From the IMG/VR virus record IMGVR_UViG_2711768037_000005, positions 3,040-67,039 of that record: a stretch of DNA of 64,000 bases. One strand, given 5' to 3'. This document shows, one piece after another, positions 2,022 to 64,000 of this stretch; within the stretch, counting starts at the first letter, position 1; the number at the start of each line of letters is the position of its first letter. The DNA is from a virus. Taxonomy: Duplodnaviria; Heunggongvirae; Uroviricota; Caudoviricetes. The translations under genes were made by a program, and so were the position numbers. Below the pieces are notes generated by a model that searched no databases, was not told the origin of the DNA, and saw nothing but the letters and a program-made list of their open reading frames with translations.

Positions 2022-3362
2022 ATGACAGAACTTTGCCATACAGGACGCGGGCTGTCCGAAGAATTTGATGAAGATTTTCAGAACAGATTGACGGCCTATT
2101 TTTGTCGTGATCACGAGTTTCTTACTCGTGCGGGAGATCTTGTTGTGCCTAGCCAATTTGCCAATGCGGCCAATGCCATATTGGTTAATATGGTTTCGGG
2201 CTATTATCGTATGTACAAGAGCGCGCCCTCTTCATCTGCAATTCTGGATATGCTTAAGCGTGCGAAACGCGATAAGACTATCCGTGAGGAACTATTCGCC
2301 GATGTTGTTGCTGCGTTTAAGCGCATTCTTGCAGAAAAATTGTCCGATACCTCGTACATGGTTGACCAGGTATCAACCTTCGCAAAAAGCGTAGCGTTTG
2401 ATGATGCTCTGATTAAGGCTGCTGAACTGAAAGAGAAAGGCGACTTTCAGGGGGCGATGGCAATCATGGCCAAGGTTCAGCAGATTGGATCGAACGAAGC
2501 GACCGGAATCTATGACTACTACACCTCCGCAAGTGAGCGATTGAAAGCGCGTGAATATGAGGCTTCAGAGGAGTATGTGCCAAACAGCATTACAACTGGA
2601 CTCCCTCTGCTCGATAGGTTGCTGTACCAAAAAGGCTGGGCGAAGCGTGAAATGGTGCTCTTCATGGGGTTCGCTAAATCCGGTAAATCGACCGCAATGG
2701 GTGAGTTTTCCATAAACGCAACGCTTGCTGGCTACAATGTTCTGTATCTCTCGCTGGAGGTTCACACCAACATTTTGTCCGACCGTTTTGATGCAAGATT
2801 GTCGGAGACGGAAATGTCCAAGTTGGTGGAACGGCGCGATGAAGTTCATCGTAAGTTGGCAGAGTTGGGAGCCTCTAAGGGGATTGGTAGTTTGTGGGTT
2901 GTTGAGCGTCCGTCAGGAAGTATGTCACCGGCAGATCTGGACCGTATGCTTAACAGTATGAAAGCCAATGGCATGGTGCCTGACATGGTTGTTGTCGACT
3001 ACGCAGATTTGATGCGTGCCAGTTATGACCTTCGTGATGATCGCGCCAACATTCGTAGTATCTACACCGATTTACGTGCTCTTTATGACAAGCATAACGT
3101 TGCTGGGATCACGGCATCGCAGACAAACCGTGAAGGTGGCGCGTCAGAAGTTGCCACAATGATGCACGCTGCTGACAACATCGAAAAAGTACGTATTGCT
3201 GACCTGGTAATAACGATCAATAAAACCGAAGAAGAAGAAGCGAAAGGAGAGGCTCGTCTCTACTTTGCCGGTTCACGTAACCAGCAGGGAGGGATCAGCA
3301 TTCGCGTTAAACAAAACCTCGAACAAATGCGCTTCATTCAGCGAATCTTAGACGTTACCTAA
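2022..3362 (+). CDS. DnaB-family replicative helicase (RecA-fold C-terminal domain)
   Basis: 446 aa; Walker A GFAKSGKST followed by LYLSLEV (DnaB 'SLEM'-like), Walker B-like MVVVDYADL; immediately upstream of primase; conserved AAAGGAAAGCACATG initiation region. Confidence 0.7.
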   Translation: MTELCHTGRGLSEEFDEDFQNRLTAYFCRDHEFLTRAGDLVVPSQFANAANAILVNMVSGYYRMYKSAPSSSAILDMLKRAKRDKTIREELFADVVAAFKRILAEKLSDTSYMVDQVSTFAKSVAFDDALIKAAELKEKGDFQGAMAIMAKVQQIGSNEATGIYDYYTSASERLKAREYEASEEYVPNSITTGLPLLDRLLYQKGWAKREMVLFMGFAKSGKSTAMGEFSINATLAGYNVLYLSLEVHTNILSDRFDARLSETEMSKLVERRDEVHRKLAELGASKGIGSLWVVERPSGSMSPADLDRMLNSMKANGMVPDMVVVDYADLMRASYDLRDDRANIRSIYTDLRALYDKHNVAGITASQTNREGGASEVATMMHAADNIEKVRIADLVITINKTEEEEAKGEARLYFAGSRNQQGGISIRVKQNLEQMRFIQRILDVT

Positions 3363-5550: not shown

Positions 5551-6021
5551 GTGAAAGCTGATTTGTCAAAAATCCCTTCTATTTCAGGAAATAACGGTTA
5601 TTCACTTCGTTGTGAGGAAGTAAAGATAAACGGTGAGTCGGCATATTGCAGCTATTCCGTTTGCCAGCACACCATTCTTGCCTTCAAAGAAAACCGTCTT
5701 CCTCGAACTTCTTTCCAGTCGTGCGCAACCGCTATTAAAGCAGGCAAATGCAAGGCGTTAAAAATGATGGTTGAAGAGATTCGTAAAGGAGAATCTCTGT
5801 ATTTCGAAGATATGACCGCACTCATTAAGGAGGTTGAAGAACGGAATAAACAAGCCAGAACTATAAAACGAAAACGTGACAGTGTAACGATTAATGACAT
5901 GGTTAAGAAGAGCGCCACATCACAAACAACGATCACTGACGTGTATGCGGCGTTGCTTGAAGAAACAACAAAAGAAACACATGAGCAAATCGATCAACAT
6001 ATGGAGGCAAAACAACAATGA
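5551..6021 (+). CDS. hypothetical protein
   Basis: 156 aa ORF; stop overlaps start of ligase gene. Confidence 0.45.
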   Translation: MKADLSKIPSISGNNGYSLRCEEVKINGESAYCSYSVCQHTILAFKENRLPRTSFQSCATAIKAGKCKALKMMVEEIRKGESLYFEDMTALIKEVEERNKQARTIKRKRDSVTINDMVKKSATSQTTITDVYAALLEETTKETHEQIDQHMEAKQQ

Positions 6022-8918: not shown

Positions 8919-8993
8919 GATGGTGTAGCTCAGCGGTAGAGCAGTTGGCTGTTAACCAACTGGTCGGTGGTTCGAATCCACCCACCATCGCCA
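8919..8993 (+). tRNA. tRNA-Asn (anticodon GTT)
   Basis: cloverleaf traced by hand: acceptor GATGGTG/CACCATC, D-arm GCTC-AGCGGTA-GAGC, anticodon arm GTTGG-CTGTTAA-CCAAC, T-arm GGTGG-TTCGAAT-CCACC, encoded CCA. Confidence 0.85.
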
Positions 8994-8998
8994 ATTTA

Positions 8999-9085
8999 GG
9001 GGAGTTAGTCCGTAGAGGTAGCGGTGTAGACTGTAAATCTACTGTCATGGCGACTCGGGTGGTTCGACTCCATCACTCCCCACCA
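8999..9085 (+). tRNA. tRNA-Tyr (anticodon GTA), long variable arm
   Basis: acceptor GGGGAGT/ACTCCCC; anticodon arm GTAGA-CTGTAAA-TCTAC; long variable arm; T-arm GGTGG-TTCGACT-CCATC; encoded CCA; D-arm atypical. Confidence 0.7.
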
Positions 9086-9089
9086 AATT

Positions 9090-9165
9090 GCCGGTTTAGC
9101 TCAGTTGGTAGAGCGGCTGCCTTGTAAGCAGGATGTCAGCGGTTCGAGTCCGTTAACCGGCACCA
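9090..9165 (+). tRNA. tRNA-Thr (anticodon TGT)
   Basis: acceptor GCCGGTT/AACCGGC; D-arm GCTC-AGTTGGTA-GAGC; anticodon loop CTTGTAA; T-arm AGCGG-TTCGAGT-CCGTT; encoded CCA; one mismatch at the base of the anticodon stem. Confidence 0.75.
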
Positions 9166-20700: not shown

Positions 20701-21274
20701 TAAAGCCTCACGTCCGTTTGAGATGAACCCCAAACGTTCGGCTGAAATTAACGTACTCATGACGCGGATGGCGGCTGAAATGGGCTTAGGTGATGAACTA
20801 ATCCGCCCCAGCATTGGTATTAAGCCGAAAATCATGATCATTCTGGACAATGCGAACGGCAATGATACTCGAACCGGTTACTTCATGGAAAACGGATACG
20901 ACGATTTTAAGGCCAAGCTATTGACGGCTGGAGATTTACGCATGGGCGATCTCTATGTCACAGGAGTTTGCAAGAAGGTTAAAGACAAAGAAAAAGACTA
21001 CACCAAAGACGAGATCGGCCAGTTCACCGACTTTATGCGTGAAGAGATCAATCTGGTGCGTCCGACCTATGTGCTGACGTGTGGCAGCCGGGCAACTTCA
21101 TTGTTTAACAACAAAAACAAGCCATCCGATTTGGTCGGCAGGAAGGAGTATCTTCCAGACCTTGACGTTACTGTCTTTTACGGGTTTAACCCCAACATTC
21201 TTTACTTCAGACCTGAAGAGGGAGAACGACTAGAAGCTATATTAGCCGACGTAGCAGAAACTATTAAGACGTGA
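17756..21274 (+). CDS. dnaE: DNA polymerase III alpha subunit (DnaE-type, PHP + polymerase core)
   Basis: 1172 aa; N-terminal PHP-like segment MVRTDFSLGESALK; conserved GLIKLDVLGL block; length typical of DnaE. Confidence 0.9.
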   Translation: MKALMVRTDFSLGESALKAENAVKIAREAGYTAVISADSMNIASVIPLQRAAGDDMAVICGVKLNIVDDPTYEHRAKLAKESKRCMESLERGRNYSFTALIKNEQGYRDICELMTVANTREQFYFVPRLSLEQLVSTYAKGNIILLTSDIGSVFQRNDFAKIISTLITAGGKDNFYSVVYPHPTPFYDQINVRAMKVASALKIEPVAFYPAYYESIDDADIKDIAHMVTNNIKIDQPHRLRIPHQRDNAINGRRHLLEALKTFSVRMDVPVTAAMASTTQDTIIDACTWRWHELPPALPKMADDEPATLMKLAVAGLRKRLTTKEFGYTPPASENRVYVERLKYEMDTLTRLGFCGYFLMVRDLMNHSRETGIPVGPGRGSSAGSLVAWCIGITNVDPIRHGLLFERFINPERLDLPDADLDFSQARRHEVIEYLNERYGEDYVAGIPNFTYLGAASALRDTARIYGVESADMAVSKELKNVEDDSLPLEELREQLASLDKYATKYPDAFNAACKLQSLMRGFGRHAAGMIVAGVPLTERTPVERRGDARCIAFDKRYCEAMGLIKLDVLGLATLDLLDSAKRYIKESTGEDINLDAISLEDRKVLDGFAAGYTQGVFQLESGPMRKLLKDLGGGIEPMSFKTVVATTALFRPGPIQSGMLDDYVSVAKGFMTPESLHPVLDELTAETNGVILYQEQTMNATRLLAGFTMAEADGVRSAIGKKNMEKMKSMGEKFIVQAQAGWIDVELEDGTTQRIHRAEHFKCEDGTLKTVEEALEYGAKLPINAVRVTASHPGLSEMKAKEIWTAFEKNGAYQFNKSHSVAYSLISYQSMWLKTHYPAEFFAAALTILGEDKHQGLVKDALTYGIRVLPPDVNMSSNRIEIRTLEDGSQVLYAPFSAVKGCSENGCQAIMRAREKVGGKFESLAQFEEAVEKRACNSRVRESLQKVGAFASIEPGSLPATDPERLRDQAELMGNLVIDAVKASRPFEMNPKRSAEINVLMTRMAAEMGLGDELIRPSIGIKPKIMIILDNANGNDTRTGYFMENGYDDFKAKLLTAGDLRMGDLYVTGVCKKVKDKEKDYTKDEIGQFTDFMREEINLVRPTYVLTCGSRATSLFNNKNKPSDLVGRKEYLPDLDVTVFYGFNPNILYFRPEEGERLEAILADVAETIKT

Positions 21275-24250: not shown

Positions 24251-25324
24251 ATGGCAAAAGCAAAATCCGCACTGGCACTTGCTCTGAAAAAGAAAATCGG
24301 TAGCAACGACGAAATTCAGAAAGTAACTCATTGGATTGATACAGGCTTTCCACCGTTAAACAAAGCTATTTCTGGTCGTTACGATGGCGGCTTCCCATGT
24401 GGTCGTATCGTCGAAGTATTCGGTCCTCCAAGTGCAGGGAAAACGTTCCTTGCAACAGCAGCGATGATCTCCGCTCAAAAACAAGATGGTCTGGCGGTAT
24501 TCCTCGATCATGAAAACAGTTTTGACGTTGGCCTGGCTGTAGCCAATGGCCTGAACGCAGATGAGGATGACGGTCAGTGGGTATACAAGCAGCCTGACAC
24601 CTTCGAAGACTCTGTAGAGTTGATCGGCACAATACTTAAATTGGTACGTGATGAAGAGCTTATCCCTGAATCAGCACCTATCTGTATCGTGGCTGACTCT
24701 CTTGCGTCTATGGTTCCGAACTCCAAAGCCGAGAAGTTCGAAAAGATGGCTGAAGGCACTGCCAAAGACAAAGATCAGCTAAACATGAACGACAATACGG
24801 CACTGGCTCGTGCGACGAGTGCGAACTTCCCTACTCTGGCTTTGTGGGCACGCAAATACAACGCCTGCATCATATTCTTGAATCAGGTTCGCACAAAAAT
24901 CGGTGTAATGTTTGGCGACCCTACTACGTCGCCAGGTGGAGATTCACCGAAGTTCTACGCTTCTGTACGTATCCGTCTTGGTGCATCGGTGATGAAGGAT
25001 GGTAAAGAGAAGATCGGCCAGGACGTAGGCGCAGAGTGCATCAAAAACAAAGTTGCACCACCTTATGGCAAATGCACCTGGAAATTCTACTTCGATCCTA
25101 CTCGTGGCCTCGACGTTATCGAATCGCTCGTCGAGTACATGCTGGAAGAAGGATACCTGCCAAAGAACGCCAGCGGGCGAGTTGAAATTGGTGACAAGAA
25201 ATACACCAAATCGCAGATCGTCGAGATGTATCGGGAGAAGCCACTGGCTGAAATCATTGCGGCTTTGCAGGCAATCGACGACCGAAGAGCAAAAGACAAC
25301 CCCACCGAGTCAGTAGAAGAGTAA
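24251..25324 (+). CDS. RecA-family recombinase (RecA/UvsX-like)
   Basis: 357 aa; Walker A GRIVEVFGPPSAGKT; RecA-like core with Walker B-like ICIVADS. Confidence 0.8.
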   Translation: MAKAKSALALALKKKIGSNDEIQKVTHWIDTGFPPLNKAISGRYDGGFPCGRIVEVFGPPSAGKTFLATAAMISAQKQDGLAVFLDHENSFDVGLAVANGLNADEDDGQWVYKQPDTFEDSVELIGTILKLVRDEELIPESAPICIVADSLASMVPNSKAEKFEKMAEGTAKDKDQLNMNDNTALARATSANFPTLALWARKYNACIIFLNQVRTKIGVMFGDPTTSPGGDSPKFYASVRIRLGASVMKDGKEKIGQDVGAECIKNKVAPPYGKCTWKFYFDPTRGLDVIESLVEYMLEEGYLPKNASGRVEIGDKKYTKSQIVEMYREKPLAEIIAALQAIDDRRAKDNPTESVEE

Positions 25325-30731: not shown

Positions 30732-31825
30732 CAAAGCAGTTTGAGACTATTGGAAAGGATCTCAATCATCTTGATATTTTCAGGCGTCAAATTCTGCGAA
30801 AGTTCAGTTATCTTGTTGATAATGTTCTGTTTAGCATCAATTTCCCCGGCTTTCTCATCTGGTTTTTTGGGTTCGATGTCTTCAGGTTTTGGCGGTGCGA
30901 CTTTAAGTTTTGGATTACGGCTGTGAATCTGGATATAGATCGACCGCCCTCGCTTAATCTCGCTGTATTCGAGATAGCCCAAATCTTGGAGAGCTTTTAA
31001 GCCGTTACGTATAGTCTGATTCTGCGAGCTTACATTCCTGCTACTCAAATTGAGTCGCGCACGCAATCGAGCAAGCGATACCGGCGCAGGCTTGGTTGGA
31101 AGACTTTCGATGAAGGTGTACAGAGCCTGTGCTGTTTCTTTGCGTGGTAGCTTATTGATAACCTTTAACTGCAAAAGAACCTTATGGTCAAAGCGATATA
31201 GTTCGGCCAGCTTCGGTTCTGCATAGAACACCACCGTATCTTTCTGCTCGTTGTAGTCCACGCTATTGATGAGGTGCACCATCAGAAGCGAGATCTTGTT
31301 AGAGCCGTCGACGTTCTTTTCTTCATACGTTCTCTGGAAAGACAGAGTTGTACGCATGATCTTCAAAAGACTGTTTGTAAGCCGGTCGCGGAGTGTTTTG
31401 CGGATCTGTGACGATGGATAGCCACAAAACTTCGCAAATTTCGTGATGCTTAACTCGACACGACCATTAGGTTCGCCGTATTCTGCCAGCGAACGCACAA
31501 CGCCCACCCACGTTTTGAAATCATGATCCATGTCCAGGCGAGGACCGGTTATCTTGATATCGGAATAGCCTTCAGAACGGGCTACTTCGAGCTGGACAAG
31601 CTCCTTTGAAGCATCGATCTCATTTGGCTTGTTACGTTTACTGTATTTTGTTCCCTTAAGCGTGGGGACGAACAACCCCAGTCGCATCAACGCAATTGGT
31701 TGGACTGTATTGTTGCTATTAGGGACAAGTTCCCCTGTGTACAATTCAAGGGAACCTTCTTCAAAGTTGTCGATGTTATCTTCTACTTCTTTGTTATTTT
31801 TACCTTTTTTATTTTTTGTGGACAT
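30731..31825 (-). CDS. repA: RepFIB/P1 RepA-family iteron-binding replication initiator
   Basis: blocks NSNNTVQPIALMRLGLFVP, ITGPRLDMDHDFKTWVGVV, AQALYTFIESLPTKPAPVSLARLRARLNLSS, GYLEYSEIKRGRS match RepFIB RepA as remembered; start placed at internal Met (MSTKNKKG) because the longer ORF to 31945 runs through the upstream iterons; RBS AAAGG 7 nt upstream. Confidence 0.85.
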   Translation of the reverse strand: MSTKNKKGKNNKEVEDNIDNFEEGSLELYTGELVPNSNNTVQPIALMRLGLFVPTLKGTKYSKRNKPNEIDASKELVQLEVARSEGYSDIKITGPRLDMDHDFKTWVGVVRSLAEYGEPNGRVELSITKFAKFCGYPSSQIRKTLRDRLTNSLLKIMRTTLSFQRTYEEKNVDGSNKISLLMVHLINSVDYNEQKDTVVFYAEPKLAELYRFDHKVLLQLKVINKLPRKETAQALYTFIESLPTKPAPVSLARLRARLNLSSRNVSSQNQTIRNGLKALQDLGYLEYSEIKRGRSIYIQIHSRNPKLKVAPPKPEDIEPKKPDEKAGEIDAKQNIINKITELSQNLTPENIKMIEILSNSLKLL

Positions 31826-58127: not shown

Positions 58128-58451
58128 ATGGCCACATCGCATTATGCAATCACCCAGGAAAAAGTATTTCGCTTGCTCGAACGTCTGGAGGCGCTCGCCA
58201 CGGAGGAAGATATATCCCCGGAGATGCTGGTTGAGTGCAGCCGTGTGATATTGCGTCACAAGAACGACATCGCGCGGCTGACATCTGGCGCACCATCCGT
58301 ATCAGCCAGTCCAACGCTTTATTGCAGCTTCTGCAACAAATCCCAGCACACCGTTAAAAAGTTAATTGCCGGGGACAACGTTTTCATCTGCAACGAGTGC
58401 GTGAAAGATTGCAACAACATTATCCAGGAAGATCAAAGGGAATCAGCATGA
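58128..58451 (+). CDS. protein with C-terminal ClpX-type C4 zinc-binding domain (ZBD) fused to a novel N-terminal region
   Basis: C-terminal [39 protein letters not shown] is ~75% identical by eye to the E. coli ClpX N-domain [39 protein letters not shown], including all four Cys; no AAA+ module follows. Confidence 0.75.
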
Positions 58452-60375: not shown

Positions 60376-61226
60376 TGCATAAATCATTAGCCGGTGAGCT
60401 TCAGGAGGAAGTAGATAATACTACCGTTCTATTGGACGATATTATAAGCATTCTTGCGCTTCTTGAGGCTGGCGATTGGTCAGAACATTGCACTAAAACA
60501 GAGCTAGGCGGTCGGCTTGAAAGAGAGATTACACGACTTATTGATGATGCGCAGGAAGCTACAGTCACTAGTTATGAGTTAATCGCTGAAGCCTGGCGTT
60601 TGATGGATGGACAAGATCCTAAAACCAGCGATTGGCATAGCAAGGCTTCGAAGTATTTAAATTCCGATAGGGTAGAAAAAGTTGATGATGTGAAACCGAA
60701 GCCAGTAGACCACGGTTTCCGCGATAACTGCGAATGCTCTAGTTGCCAGACCACGGCCCGTATTTGTTCCGAATTGACAGATAAGTCCAGCCTAATCTAC
60801 GAAGTTAATGTAGGCGGTAATACATGGGGCGAATGCACAAGAGCTGCATACGTAAGAGCAAAAGACAAGGGTGAATTAACCAGAGTTGTTACCCATCACC
60901 CAAATAATGAGCTTAAAGATCAACAGATTAGAGAACTGGTGAACGAGTTGCGGGATATTGCGGTTCAGTACCACGGAACGCAGCAATTGCGGGAGAAAAT
61001 TGCCAGAGCAGTGAATAACTCGCTCAAAGGTGGACAATTTCAACCGAAACGTATACGAATTACGCATATAGGTGAAAACGGCGTAGAAATCCCCCAATTC
61101 TCTGTTGGGGACATCTTTGATGTGTATGGAGAAGAGTTTGGCGAGCCTCACATCACCATGCCTAGTGGCCATGTTTACTGGCTAAGAGCTATGGAGAAAT
61201 ATGGTGATAAATGGGAAGTGTTATGA
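60372..61226 (+). CDS. hypothetical protein
   Basis: 284 aa; contains CECSSCQ. Confidence 0.45.
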   Translation: MMHKSLAGELQEEVDNTTVLLDDIISILALLEAGDWSEHCTKTELGGRLEREITRLIDDAQEATVTSYELIAEAWRLMDGQDPKTSDWHSKASKYLNSDRVEKVDDVKPKPVDHGFRDNCECSSCQTTARICSELTDKSSLIYEVNVGGNTWGECTRAAYVRAKDKGELTRVVTHHPNNELKDQQIRELVNELRDIAVQYHGTQQLREKIARAVNNSLKGGQFQPKRIRITHIGENGVEIPQFSVGDIFDVYGEEFGEPHITMPSGHVYWLRAMEKYGDKWEVL

Positions 61227-61764
61227 GGGATGCGAAGTTATGACTAAATTTGGAAAGCTGGAAGCTCATTTGCTAACTCGTAACTACCGCCATGATGTGC
61301 ATCCATATAGACAGTGGATCGATGAAAGCGAAGGAGTTGTTACATTCCCTCTATACAGGTTTGATGGGATGTTGGCCGGGTATCAGACATACAGACCAGG
61401 CGCTCCTAAGCAGCATAGCAATCCGAAGATGGCCCGGTATTTCACACGAGCGCACGGCAGACAGCTACTATGGGGAACCTATCTTCCTTTGAAAGATGGA
61501 CCTATATGGATAACTGAGTCGATTTTTAAAAGTGCAGCAGTGCACAACGCTGGCGGAAATTCGTGGGCGCTGTTAGGTTCGACTTTCTCAGCAGGATTAC
61601 GTCGTCAACTGGCAATGCTGCCGTATGACTTTCGTGTTATAGGTGACAATGATGCGGCTGGTGAATCACTTGTGAAGTCTTTCGGAAAAGGTTTTGTGGC
61701 ACCGGATCTTGACGAGCTACAACCACATGAAGTGTCTAATTTGATTTTTAGCCATAGCCAATAA
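61201..61764 (+). CDS. Toprim-domain protein
   Basis: 187 aa; conserved Glu (IWITESIFKS) and DxD (VIGDNDAAGE) spaced as in Toprim folds. Confidence 0.4.
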   Translation: MVINGKCYEGCEVMTKFGKLEAHLLTRNYRHDVHPYRQWIDESEGVVTFPLYRFDGMLAGYQTYRPGAPKQHSNPKMARYFTRAHGRQLLWGTYLPLKDGPIWITESIFKSAAVHNAGGNSWALLGSTFSAGLRRQLAMLPYDFRVIGDNDAAGESLVKSFGKGFVAPDLDELQPHEVSNLIFSHSQ

Positions 61765-61780
61765 GCATCCCTTCTCCATT

Positions 61781-61853
61781 AAGGCCACAACTAGTGGCCT
61801 TAAACAATTTGTTTTCTACGTTTTCTTATTTGAGAAAATCACGTTGCTGGCAG
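61781..61853. repeat. ~65-bp direct repeat unit, copy B (hairpin AAGGCCACAACTAGTGGCCTT + AAACAATTTGTTTTCTACGTTTTCTTATTTGAGAAAAT)
   Basis: paired with copy A at 55508-55575. Confidence 0.6.
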
Positions 61854-62043
61854 CTCATAGGCTTGTTGTTATACATAGCTGTATAGATTATGAGCGTAAA
61901 TTATTAGCAGCTAATTCCTTATTAACTGATTGGCAACGAGGTTACGCTGATCCGTTGGTGATGAATAGTAGCAAAGAGCACAAAATCATCAGCGGTGGTT
62001 GATGTGCGTAACGCGTTTGCACCAAAGGTGCTTCTTTAATGTA

Positions 62044-62063
62044 TACTGTATAGATGAACAGTA
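62044..62063. promoter_or_regulatory. LexA (SOS) box TACTGTATAGATGAACAGTA upstream of the umuD'-like gene
   Basis: matches CTGT-N8-ACAG consensus with flanking TA; sits 19 bp upstream of the start codon. Confidence 0.75.
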
Positions 62064-62081
62064 TTTTGGAGTAAAAACGCT

Positions 62082-62471
62082 ATGGCCTTCCCTTCTCCTG
62101 CGGCGGATTATGTTGAAAGCAGAATTTCTCTTGATCAGCAACTAATCAGGCATCCATCAGCGACCTACTTCATGCGGGCAGCTGATAGTCATCATCGTGA
62201 GGGAATATTACAGGGTGCATTGCTGGTGGTCGATTCCTCACTTACCCCGGTTGATGGTTCTCTGCTTGTATGCGCTCTGGATGGGGAATATCGCGTAAAA
62301 AGATACCGGAAGTATCCACGTCAGCATCTGGAGGATTTAAGAACTGGTAAGAAGGAAGCATTGCCAAAGGATGACGATGGATGCACGGGCAGCAATGCCG
62401 TGTTTGGTGTGATCACTCACATTATCAACGACGCAAGAAGTGGCGAGTTTGATGATTGTCCTGTGATGTAG
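62082..62471 (+). CDS. UmuD'-like protein (LexA/S24 peptidase fold, pre-truncated; P1 HumD-like)
   Basis: 129 aa; begins [30 protein letters not shown], matching UmuD from just after its RecA-mediated cleavage site ([29 protein letters not shown]); Ser and Lys of the dyad present. Confidence 0.75.
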   Translation: [129 protein letters not shown]

Positions 62472-62484
62472 GAGAACTGTTTAG

Positions 62485-62510
62485 GTGGTGCATTGCACCA
62501 CCTTTTTATC
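62485..62510. terminator. bidirectional terminator hairpin between convergent umuD'-like and apbC
   Basis: GGTGGTGCA-T-TGCACCACC followed by TTTTTAT. Confidence 0.6.
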
Positions 62511-63609
62511 ACACTGCGCGGAATGCGATTTCGCTAGGTATTACTTCACCTTGCCAATACATTTGGGCAGCAACGCGATCTGCGAGGTCACGATAAATAG
62601 CCGTAAATTCGCTATCTGGACGACTAATAACGGTTGGTGTTCCGTTATCCAGATCTTCACGAAGTGAGATATGAAGTGGCATTTGGCCTAACAACTGCGT
62701 GTTGTATTTCTCGGCCAGTTTCTCTGCGCCACCGGTGCCAAAAATTGGCTCGTGATGACCGCAGTTACTGCAAATATGCACACTCATGTTTTCGACGATA
62801 CCCAGTACCGGCACTTCGACTTTTTCGAACATCACAATGCCTTTCTTCGCATCGATCAGCGCGATGTCTTGCGGCGTAGTTACCACAACCGCACCAGTTA
62901 CAGGAATGTTCTGCGCCAGCGTCAACTGAATATCACCAGTGCCCGGCGGCATATCGAGAACGAGATAGTCCAGATCAGGCCATAGAGTTTCCTGCAACAT
63001 CTGCATCAGCGCCTTGCTGGCCATCGGTCCACGCCACACCATTGCATTGTCGTCGGTGACCAGATAACCAATAGAGTTGGTTGCCAGGCCATGAGACATG
63101 ATAGGTGCCATGTGAGTACCGTCAGGTGAGGTTGGACGTTGGTTTTCCGCGCCCAGCATGGTTGGAATTGATGGACCATAGATATCGGCATCCAAAATAC
63201 CAACTTTCGCACCTTCAGCAGCCAACGCCAGTGCCAGGTTTACCGCCGTGGAGGATTTACCCACGCCGCCCTTGCCTGAGCTGACGGCGATAATGTTCTT
63301 AACGCCATTAATGCCTGGTTGGTTTTTGACGCGCTTAAGCGTGGCAATGTTGTACGACAGCTTCCAGTCAATAGCCTTTGCGCCAGTGATACGGAGCAGA
63401 TCACTACTACATTGCTCTTTCAGGTCTTCAAAAGGCTTATTCCACACGAAAGGCATGATTAGTTCGACATGCAGTGTGTCATCCATCAACGCAACATGGT
63501 GTAACGCTTTAAGCGTAGTCAGGTTGTGTTTCAGGGTTGGGTGCTGAAAATTAGCCAGCGTACCGGCTACCATTGCTCTCAGGGCATCCGGCGATTTGGA
63601 CTCGCTCAT
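62509..63609 (-). CDS. apbC: Fe-S cluster carrier ATPase ApbC/Mrp (chromosomal housekeeping gene)
   Basis: 366 aa; near-identical to remembered E. coli Mrp over most of its length (AVSSGKGGVGKSSTAVNLALALAAEGAKVGILDADIYGPS, ICSNCGHHEPIFG). Confidence 0.95.
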   Translation of the reverse strand: MSESKSPDALRAMVAGTLANFQHPTLKHNLTTLKALHHVALMDDTLHVELIMPFVWNKPFEDLKEQCSSDLLRITGAKAIDWKLSYNIATLKRVKNQPGINGVKNIIAVSSGKGGVGKSSTAVNLALALAAEGAKVGILDADIYGPSIPTMLGAENQRPTSPDGTHMAPIMSHGLATNSIGYLVTDDNAMVWRGPMASKALMQMLQETLWPDLDYLVLDMPPGTGDIQLTLAQNIPVTGAVVVTTPQDIALIDAKKGIVMFEKVEVPVLGIVENMSVHICSNCGHHEPIFGTGGAEKLAEKYNTQLLGQMPLHISLREDLDNGTPTVISRPDSEFTAIYRDLADRVAAQMYWQGEVIPSEIAFRAV

Positions 63610-63766: not shown

Positions 63767-64000
63767 ATGACCCAAGTCGCGAAGAAAATTCTGGTGACGT
63801 GCGCGCTGCCGTACGCTAACGGCTCAATCCACCTCGGCCATATGCTGGAGCACATCCAGGCTGATGTCTGGGTTCGTTACCAGCGAATGCGCGGCCACGA
63901 GGTTAATTTCATCTGTGCCGACGATGCCCACGGTACGCCAATCATGCTGAAAGCACAGCAGCTTGGTATCACACCGGAACAGATGATTGGCGAAATGAGT
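63767..64000 (+). CDS. metG: methionyl-tRNA synthetase, 5' partial (runs off window)
   Basis: [44 protein letters not shown] with HIGH-type motif; divergent from apbC as in E. coli. Confidence 0.95.

Follow-up and report, generated by a model that had tools for sequence, protein, structure and literature searches.

We analysed a window of 64,000 nt (positions 3,040 to 67,039 of IMG/VR virus record IMGVR_UViG_2711768037_000005, class Caudoviricetes), and we found that the gene at 62082-62471 and its flanking signals very probably form a self-contained humD cassette of a phage-plasmid, whose product would be a LexA-controlled, pre-activated equivalent of UmuD' that works through the host UmuC. 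The gene is an ordinary humD orthologue and showed the features of the HumD family wherever these were tested. It is also a gene already known, characterised in 1999 and named by RefSeq, in a known kind of element, so what is particular here is local only: the SSU5-type element, the lost lxr and phd-doc, and the place of humD beside apbC-metG. A sequence-only reading of the same DNA had proposed a pre-truncated UmuD' homologue under an SOS box at the edge of the element; the homologue and the box stood, but the edge did not. The span that it had given, 62044-62471, was exact, with 62044 as the first base of the box and 62471 as the last base of the stop codon. The parts of the cassette are as follows.

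62082-62471, plus strand: humD coding sequence, 129 residues plus the stop codon, for a pre-truncated UmuD'-like protein
62044-62063, unstranded: LexA (SOS) box TACTGTATAGATGAACAGTA, with 17 of 20 positions as in the consensus, 18 nt upstream of the ATG
62017-62047, plus strand: candidate promoter TTGCAC-N19-TATACT, found by eye, with its -10 hexamer overlapping the left arm of the box
62068-62071, plus strand: Shine-Dalgarno sequence GGAG, 10 nt upstream of the ATG
62439-62468, plus strand: codons of the HumD-specific C-terminal tail (residues 120-129, including GEFDDCPVM), conserved in the family and absent from UmuD
61779-61803, plus strand: terminator-like hairpin (10-pair stem with 5 GC pairs) after a toprim-like gene, the upstream limit of the humD unit
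62483-62508, plus strand: intrinsic terminator (stem 62483-62503 of 9 pairs, 6 of them GC, then TTTTT), abutting the 3' end of the convergent apbC

The protein matched the NCBIfam equivalog NF051876 ("HumD family translesion DNA polymerase") with 218 bits, where the curated cutoff is 120, and the match spanned residues 1-129 of 129. Direct alignment with HumD of phage P1 (YP_006569) gave 119 identical residues of 129 (92%) without any gap, so the likeness to P1 HumD that had been recognised from the sequence was borne out from end to end. Pfam Peptidase_S24 (PF00717) and PHROG 811 ("UmuD-like protein", E = 7e-54) matched as well. A sequence search of solved structures returned the UmuD' chains 1i4v and 1umu as the best matches (E about 2e-23), and residues 2-116 of the query were aligned to residues 1-112 of the UmuD' chain, which means residues 25-136 of full-length UmuD. 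The AlphaFold model, made with 39 family sequences, had a mean predicted local distance difference test (pLDDT) score of 68, with 70-85 in the core and 40-50 for the other four models; the confidence was modest, and the model was used only for support of the fold and for the low-confidence tail. Foldseek with this model gave UmuD' (1umu and 1ay9) as the top matches.

Two other kinds of S24 protein were ruled out. The score on the model of UmuD proper, the autoproteolytic subunit of Pol V, was 85.6 bits (NF007621, cutoff 110), and the arm and the Cys/Ala-Gly self-cleavage site of that protein are absent. The LexA model gave only 28 bits against a cutoff of 111, and the 129-residue protein is an S24 domain alone, without the N-terminal DNA-binding domain of a LexA/CI-type repressor.

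The comparison with E. coli UmuD and UmuD' (1umu, 1ay9 and 1i4v) showed the same S24 beta-fold, 45% identity, a conserved N-terminal segment (FPSPAADY) and a LexA-controlled gene in both, whereas codons for the 24-residue arm and for the cleavage site are missing here and the gene shares no operon with umuC. The window protein also differs from UmuD by a 4-residue insertion, by a conserved 10-residue C-terminal tail, and by ADSH in place of GDSM, although the S24 dyad itself is retained (S36 and K73). In this alignment, in which residues 25-136 of the UmuD query match the PDB chains, residue 2 fell on UmuD Gly25, that is, on residue 1 of UmuD', in agreement with the earlier claim that translation starts at the N-terminus of UmuD'. 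Three-frame translation of 61900-62100 showed no N-terminal arm encoded upstream, and stops were present in the humD frame. The nearest of them is the TGA at 62055, nine codons up and within the LexA box, and more stops lie beyond it, so an N-terminal extension cannot be encoded, as had been judged by eye.

Nine HumD homologues were aligned with UmuD. In the Ser60 column, the P1 and SSU5 types have S, the Hafnia phage yong1 has Y, and the four phages N15, phiKO2, HK140 and HK639 have T; in the Lys97 column, HK639 has M and yong1 has R. Thus, the catalytic dyad of UmuD is not conserved in the HumD family, which fits a protein that is no longer self-cleaving. The gene itself is under strong purifying selection: the ratio of nonsynonymous to synonymous substitution rates (dN/dS) was 0.06 against P1 humD (dS 0.62), and 0.09-0.11 against the copies of the phage-plasmids Cyrano and PhiR41_1.

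Against the LexA consensus TACTGTATATATATACAGTA, the box TACTGTATAGATGAACAGTA has 3 mismatches in 20 positions, none of them in the CTGT or the ACAG core. No other 20-mer of the 64-kb window had three mismatches or fewer, and none of 100 dinucleotide-preserving shuffles gave any such 20-mer; so a chance LexA box was ruled out, and the SOS box seen upstream of humD in the sequence-only reading was confirmed. The box is also the sole instance of the bare pattern CTGT-N8-ACAG in the window, but the chance expectation of this pattern is about one per 64 kb, which makes it weak when taken alone, so the significance of the box comes from the full 20-mer together with the comparative evidence.

For this comparison, we took the 300 nt upstream of the humD homologues of P1, Cyrano, PhiR41_1, N15 (gp26), phiKO2 (gp23), HK140, HK639, BTP1 and Hafnia phage yong1. 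In all nine, the gene was preceded by a CTGT-N8-ACAG box that departs from the consensus at 2-4 positions. The distance from box to start codon was 14-19 nt in seven of the nine phages (18 nt in the window), and the other two were phiKO2, whose box ends 44 nt before the start codon, and HK140, whose box ends 262 nt before it and precedes a small co-oriented open reading frame (ORF). The annotated LexA site of P1 (87545..87564) is the window box with one base changed. Cyrano has a mosaic promoter region, and its upstream sequence is wholly unrelated to that of the window; nonetheless a box of its own, TACTGTATGTGTATACAGTA, stands at the same place and is nearer to the consensus (18/20). That the box was kept in such non-homologous promoter contexts is the strongest evidence obtained here for a functional LexA control. 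From the position and the conservation of the box, we infer that LexA would repress humD and that DNA damage would relieve this repression.

The candidate promoter consists of TTGCAC (62017-22), a spacer of 19 nt, which is longer than optimal, and TATACT (62042-47). In several other phages, too, a candidate -10 hexamer could be read by eye within the left arm. Cyrano (L003, positions 5960-6001) has a candidate promoter TTCAAA-N17-TATACT, which looks better than that of the window. Since there are hairpins on both flanks, humD looks like an independent, moron-style transcription unit.

The gene lies inside a circular SSU5-like phage-plasmid related to Cyrano (pLF82). Over its full length, from 1 to 64000, the window is collinear with the E. 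coli plasmid pOkiPb01698_2 (NZ_AP042587.1), a circle of 108,543 bp, at 97-99.7% identity, and the RepB initiator gene of this plasmid, which spans the start of its record, maps by collinearity to about window position 31,800. The plasmid has the structural module of a siphovirus (terminase, portal, major capsid, tape measure and TipJ), and its maintenance and DNA genes include ParB-type partition, DnaE, a DnaB-like helicase, ligase, RecA, NrdAB, ThyA, DfrA51 and RNase H. Cyrano, which according to its authors is SSU5-like, makes virions and can be induced with ciprofloxacin (PMC9928086), matched the window at 97-98% over humD-apbC-metG and at 91-98% in shorter upstream blocks. The two genes beside humD on this side are as follows.

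62509-63609, minus strand: apbC/mrp-like gene for an iron-sulfur carrier ATPase, phage-plasmid cargo outside the humD unit
63767-64000, plus strand: 5' part of metG (methionine-tRNA ligase), borne by the phage-plasmid, the rest lying beyond the end of the window

In Cyrano, PhiR41_1, CMS-2020a and pOkiPb01698_2, humD likewise stands directly upstream of apbC-metG; the proteins of the phage copies are 96-98.5% identical to the window protein, and the RefSeq name in these SSU5-like relatives is "HumD family translesion DNA polymerase". Further element genes follow metG in pOkiPb01698_2, Cyrano and PhiR41_1. At the nucleotide level, the window apbC-metG was 80-90% (about 85%) identical to 5,420 records, those listed being chromosomes, and at least 95% identical to 218 records, both of those listed being plasmids. 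All 5,426 complete E. coli genomes had a match to apbC-metG. Of the 5,653 places that matched, 225 were on plasmids; the identity to plasmid copies was 95-99.5%. Towards the chromosome, homology sets in no earlier than about 62513, close to the stop codon of apbC. The identity of about 85% to the chromosomal copies and the collinear plasmid therefore indicate that apbC-metG, which the phage-plasmid carries as a complete pair, is diverged cargo from another enterobacterial lineage. SSU5 itself was not among the 30 records listed of the 42 that matched the humD-apbC-metG module at the nucleotide level, so the group may carry it as an accessory module. A metG borne by a phage-plasmid is already on record and has been linked to antimicrobial survival of Shigella (Tam et al. 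2024, as cited in PMC12452169). A pre-activated and damage-inducible subunit of Pol V, as predicted here, which adjoins metG and shares its element with dfrA51 (annotated in the near-identical pOkiPb01698_2), may interest researchers of phage-plasmids and of resistance.

A homologue of umuC or dinB was not found by tblastn with a UmuC query in the window or in the whole of pOkiPb01698_2, and none of the 131 RefSeq features of this plasmid was a Y-family polymerase. This agrees with the earlier observation that no umuC-like gene follows humD, and it means that HumD has to act through the host. In an undamaged cell, the host LexA would sit on 62044-62063 and block the transcription of humD; after DNA damage, RecA would be activated, LexA would be cleaved and humD would be transcribed. 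The product should be equivalent to UmuD' once translated, since the gene lacks the codons of the 24-residue N-terminal arm and of the Cys24/Gly25 cleavage site. HumD would in this way skip the slow RecA*-mediated self-cleavage that ordinarily delays the activation of Pol V, and a HumD dimer would most likely join the host UmuC to form a translesion polymerase of the Pol V kind, as P1 HumD is reported to do. Going by the established biochemistry of Pol V, RecA* would still be needed to activate the UmuC-containing complex, and the RecA homologue encoded by the element (24251-25324, plus strand; Pfam RecA, E = 2e-42) is a possible contributor to this activation. The element also encodes a Pol III alpha homologue (17756-21274, plus strand, 1172 residues), and both proteins are relevant to any model of HumD and Pol V during induction.

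The 92% identity to P1 HumD, together with the reports on that protein, suggests that the window protein would need no RecA* cleavage and would assemble with the host UmuC. P1 HumD is reported to complement UmuD' in UmuC-dependent SOS mutagenesis (McLenigan et al. 1999, as cited in PMC7092418 and PMC4713147), and PMC7092418, citing the same work, calls it an "already activated, shorter version of UmuD". The use of the host UmuC by an SOS-induced UmuD', which the sequence-only reading had proposed, is thus in line with the literature on P1 HumD. That humD is a LexA-regulated SOS gene is stated in PMC9603915, again after McLenigan et al. (1999).

Several points weigh against this reading. The binding of LexA and the partnering with UmuC are predictions based on homology. 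No sigma-70 promoter passed a consensus scan of 61700-62700, and the best candidate by eye is the one with the 19-nt spacer; moreover, the humD promoter annotated in P1, PhumD, lies inside lxr, a gene that is absent here. The transcription start is therefore a candidate only. The family-specific tail also shows that HumD is not simply an arm-less UmuD', and it may have additional partners.

The relation to P1 extends beyond the gene into the region upstream, in which two further features are placed.

61909-62461, plus strand: P1-like segment, about 90% identical to P1 87410..87963, which holds the lxr-humD intergenic region and humD
61201-61764, upstream of humD: toprim-like gene, whose RefSeq homologue is named "toprim domain-containing protein"

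The two HumD proteins have the same length of 129 residues and both start at the N-terminus of UmuD', with Gly as residue 2 in P1 and Ala here. The LexA boxes, one base apart, lie 18-19 nt upstream of the ATG, umuC is not adjacent in either case, and both genes are located on phage-plasmids. However, P1 is of the P1-like myovirus kind, and the element here is an SSU5-like siphovirus phage-plasmid. The P1 homology begins at the base beside the lxr start codon and ends 10 nt short of the humD stop. Since it stops at the lxr start and no minus-strand ORF of at least 40 residues was found between 61765 and 61988, lxr, which in P1 is the divergent gene under LexA regulation, is absent, and a divergent lxr-like gene using the same box, as in P1, was rejected. 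The phd-doc addiction module, which is downstream of humD in P1, is absent too; here the terminator and then the convergent apbC-metG cargo take that place.

Some smaller observations concern this region. The 173-bp leader (61909-62081) is about 94-96% identical to P1, and the coding part (62082-62468) is 87% identical, with the dS of 0.62 given above; this contrast could mean that the non-coding leader is under constraint despite the loss of lxr, or that the segment is a mosaic of parts of different age. At 61880-61899, just outside the P1-homologous segment, the sequence AGCTGTATAGATTATGAGCG contains 10 bases, CTGTATAGAT, that are also found in the left half of the LexA box, 160 bp further downstream, but it has no ACAG arm; either a recombination scar or chance could explain it. 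In its 3' half (61552-61764), the toprim-like gene is homologous to a gene named "upf93.6" or hypothetical near lxr-humD in the P1-like P7, SJ46 and MH422554. P1-like and SSU5-like elements appear to exchange this region.

Other explanations of the gene were weighed against that of a LexA-controlled UmuD' equivalent. It is unlikely that HumD is mainly a manager of polymerases (host Pol III or DinB, or the DnaE of the element) that keeps the phage-plasmid replicating on damaged templates during induction, with mutagenesis as a side effect. Most of the contacts described for UmuD as a manager of polymerases involve its N-terminal arms, which the window protein does not have; HumD is found, too, in small lambdoid and N15-like phages without a replicase of their own. 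Such a role would agree with the Pol III alpha and RecA of the element, with the nearness of P1 humD to hot (a Pol III theta homologue), with the conserved extra C-terminal tail that UmuD does not have, and with the abstracts of PMC3384344, PMC3799427 and PMC3901139, according to which the umuD products bind Pol III at its alpha, beta and epsilon subunits and modulate DinB. But the sole function reported for the 92%-identical P1 protein, in PMC7092418 citing McLenigan et al. (1999), is complementation of UmuD' in UmuC-dependent mutagenesis.

We regarded it as very improbable that the gene is a decaying hitch-hiker, an S24 peptidase fragment brought in by recombination with P1-like elements and without a selected function. 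The cassette is mosaic, with P1 homology from the start codon of the lost lxr to 10 nt before the humD stop, and the dyad columns vary across the family (S/T/Y at Ser60, K/M/R at Lys97), but loss of the dyad is expected where self-cleavage is no longer needed. Moreover, dN/dS was 0.06-0.11 against three homologues, the ORF is intact, with 126-130 residues in most of the 120 best family clusters (92/120 listed; 97 of 126-130 residues), and the LexA box was retained in unrelated promoter contexts. Hardly credible at all is a moron at the edge of a chromosome-integrated element beside the host apbC-metG, which is the "element edge" of the sequence-only reading. Seen in isolation, the apbC and metG directly downstream do resemble chromosomal housekeeping genes, and humD adjoins attP or int in the lambdoid HK140, HK639 and BTP1. 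However, the whole window, RepB included, is collinear with the circular plasmid, in which, as in Cyrano and PhiR41_1, more genes of the element come after metG, and apbC-metG is closer to the plasmid copies (95-99.5%) than to the chromosomal ones of E. coli (about 85%). An integrated element that ends at apbC was rejected on this collinearity and this 85% identity. So apbC and metG, which look like housekeeping genes beside phage genes, are internal cargo and mark no integration boundary here.

The conserved C-terminal tail of HumD is the sole feature for which we found no published explanation, and it may be new. The tail is predicted to be disordered (pLDDT below 50 in the AlphaFold model). 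The motif [ED]F[DE][DE] stood within the last 15 residues in 110 of the 120 best family clusters. In a sample of representatives at 50% identity whose core was complete, 5 of the 13 pre-truncated proteins had the tail and none of the 40 arm-bearing UmuD homologues did (Fisher p = 4.5e-4, a value not corrected for shared ancestry). Its variants include GEFDDTPF, FEFHDNLPF and DEFDEIPCI, and some of them end in -DDTPF or -DNLPF.

The tail resembles the C-terminal tip of SSB, DFDDDIPF, through which SSB docks its many partner proteins. This tip is given as DDDIPF in PMC5872125, and a link between HumD and the SSB tip was not found in the literature among the top-ranked matches. There is a slim chance that the HumD tail is a mimic of the SSB tip. 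If it were, the tail might recruit HumD-UmuC to the pockets that interact with SSB, or compete with SSB for partners during the SOS response, and phage HumD would have a set of partners beyond that of the host UmuD'.

The HumD family also occurs beyond this element. Of the 5,426 complete E. coli genomes, 741 contained DNA related to humD, mostly on plasmids (667 places, against 112 on chromosomes). A protein search gave 448 clusters, many of which, from Escherichia, Citrobacter, Salmonella, Klebsiella and Enterobacter, are already named "HumD family translesion DNA polymerase", and the phage records with the family were P1-like, SSU5-like, N15-like and lambdoid genomes. The proteins of N15 (gp26), phiKO2 (gp23), HK140, HK639 and BTP1 are pre-truncated like the window protein, about 127-129 residues long where intact, with a LexA box upstream, and the four of them that were aligned (N15, phiKO2, HK140 and HK639) have a GEFDD tail at the end. 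These N15-like and lambdoid proteins are more divergent, however, with 63-71% identity to the window protein, and their genes stand next to partition genes or to attP/int, sometimes with dinI.

Two further observations were made elsewhere in the window. An Rfam scan found nothing near humD, and above the threshold it gave only three of the four tRNA genes (8919-9165) of a cluster on the plus strand of the phage-plasmid (8919-9743; Asn-GTT, Tyr-GTA, Thr-TGT and Ser-TGA). At 58128-58451 (plus strand), a protein of 107 residues has as its sole Pfam match the C4 zinc finger of ClpX (PF06689, E = 1e-17, residues 65-101, near the C-terminus) and no AAA+ module. The zinc-finger domain of ClpX recognises the UmuD arm and adaptors such as SspB, and the 107-residue protein could be a decoy for the delivery of substrates to ClpX.

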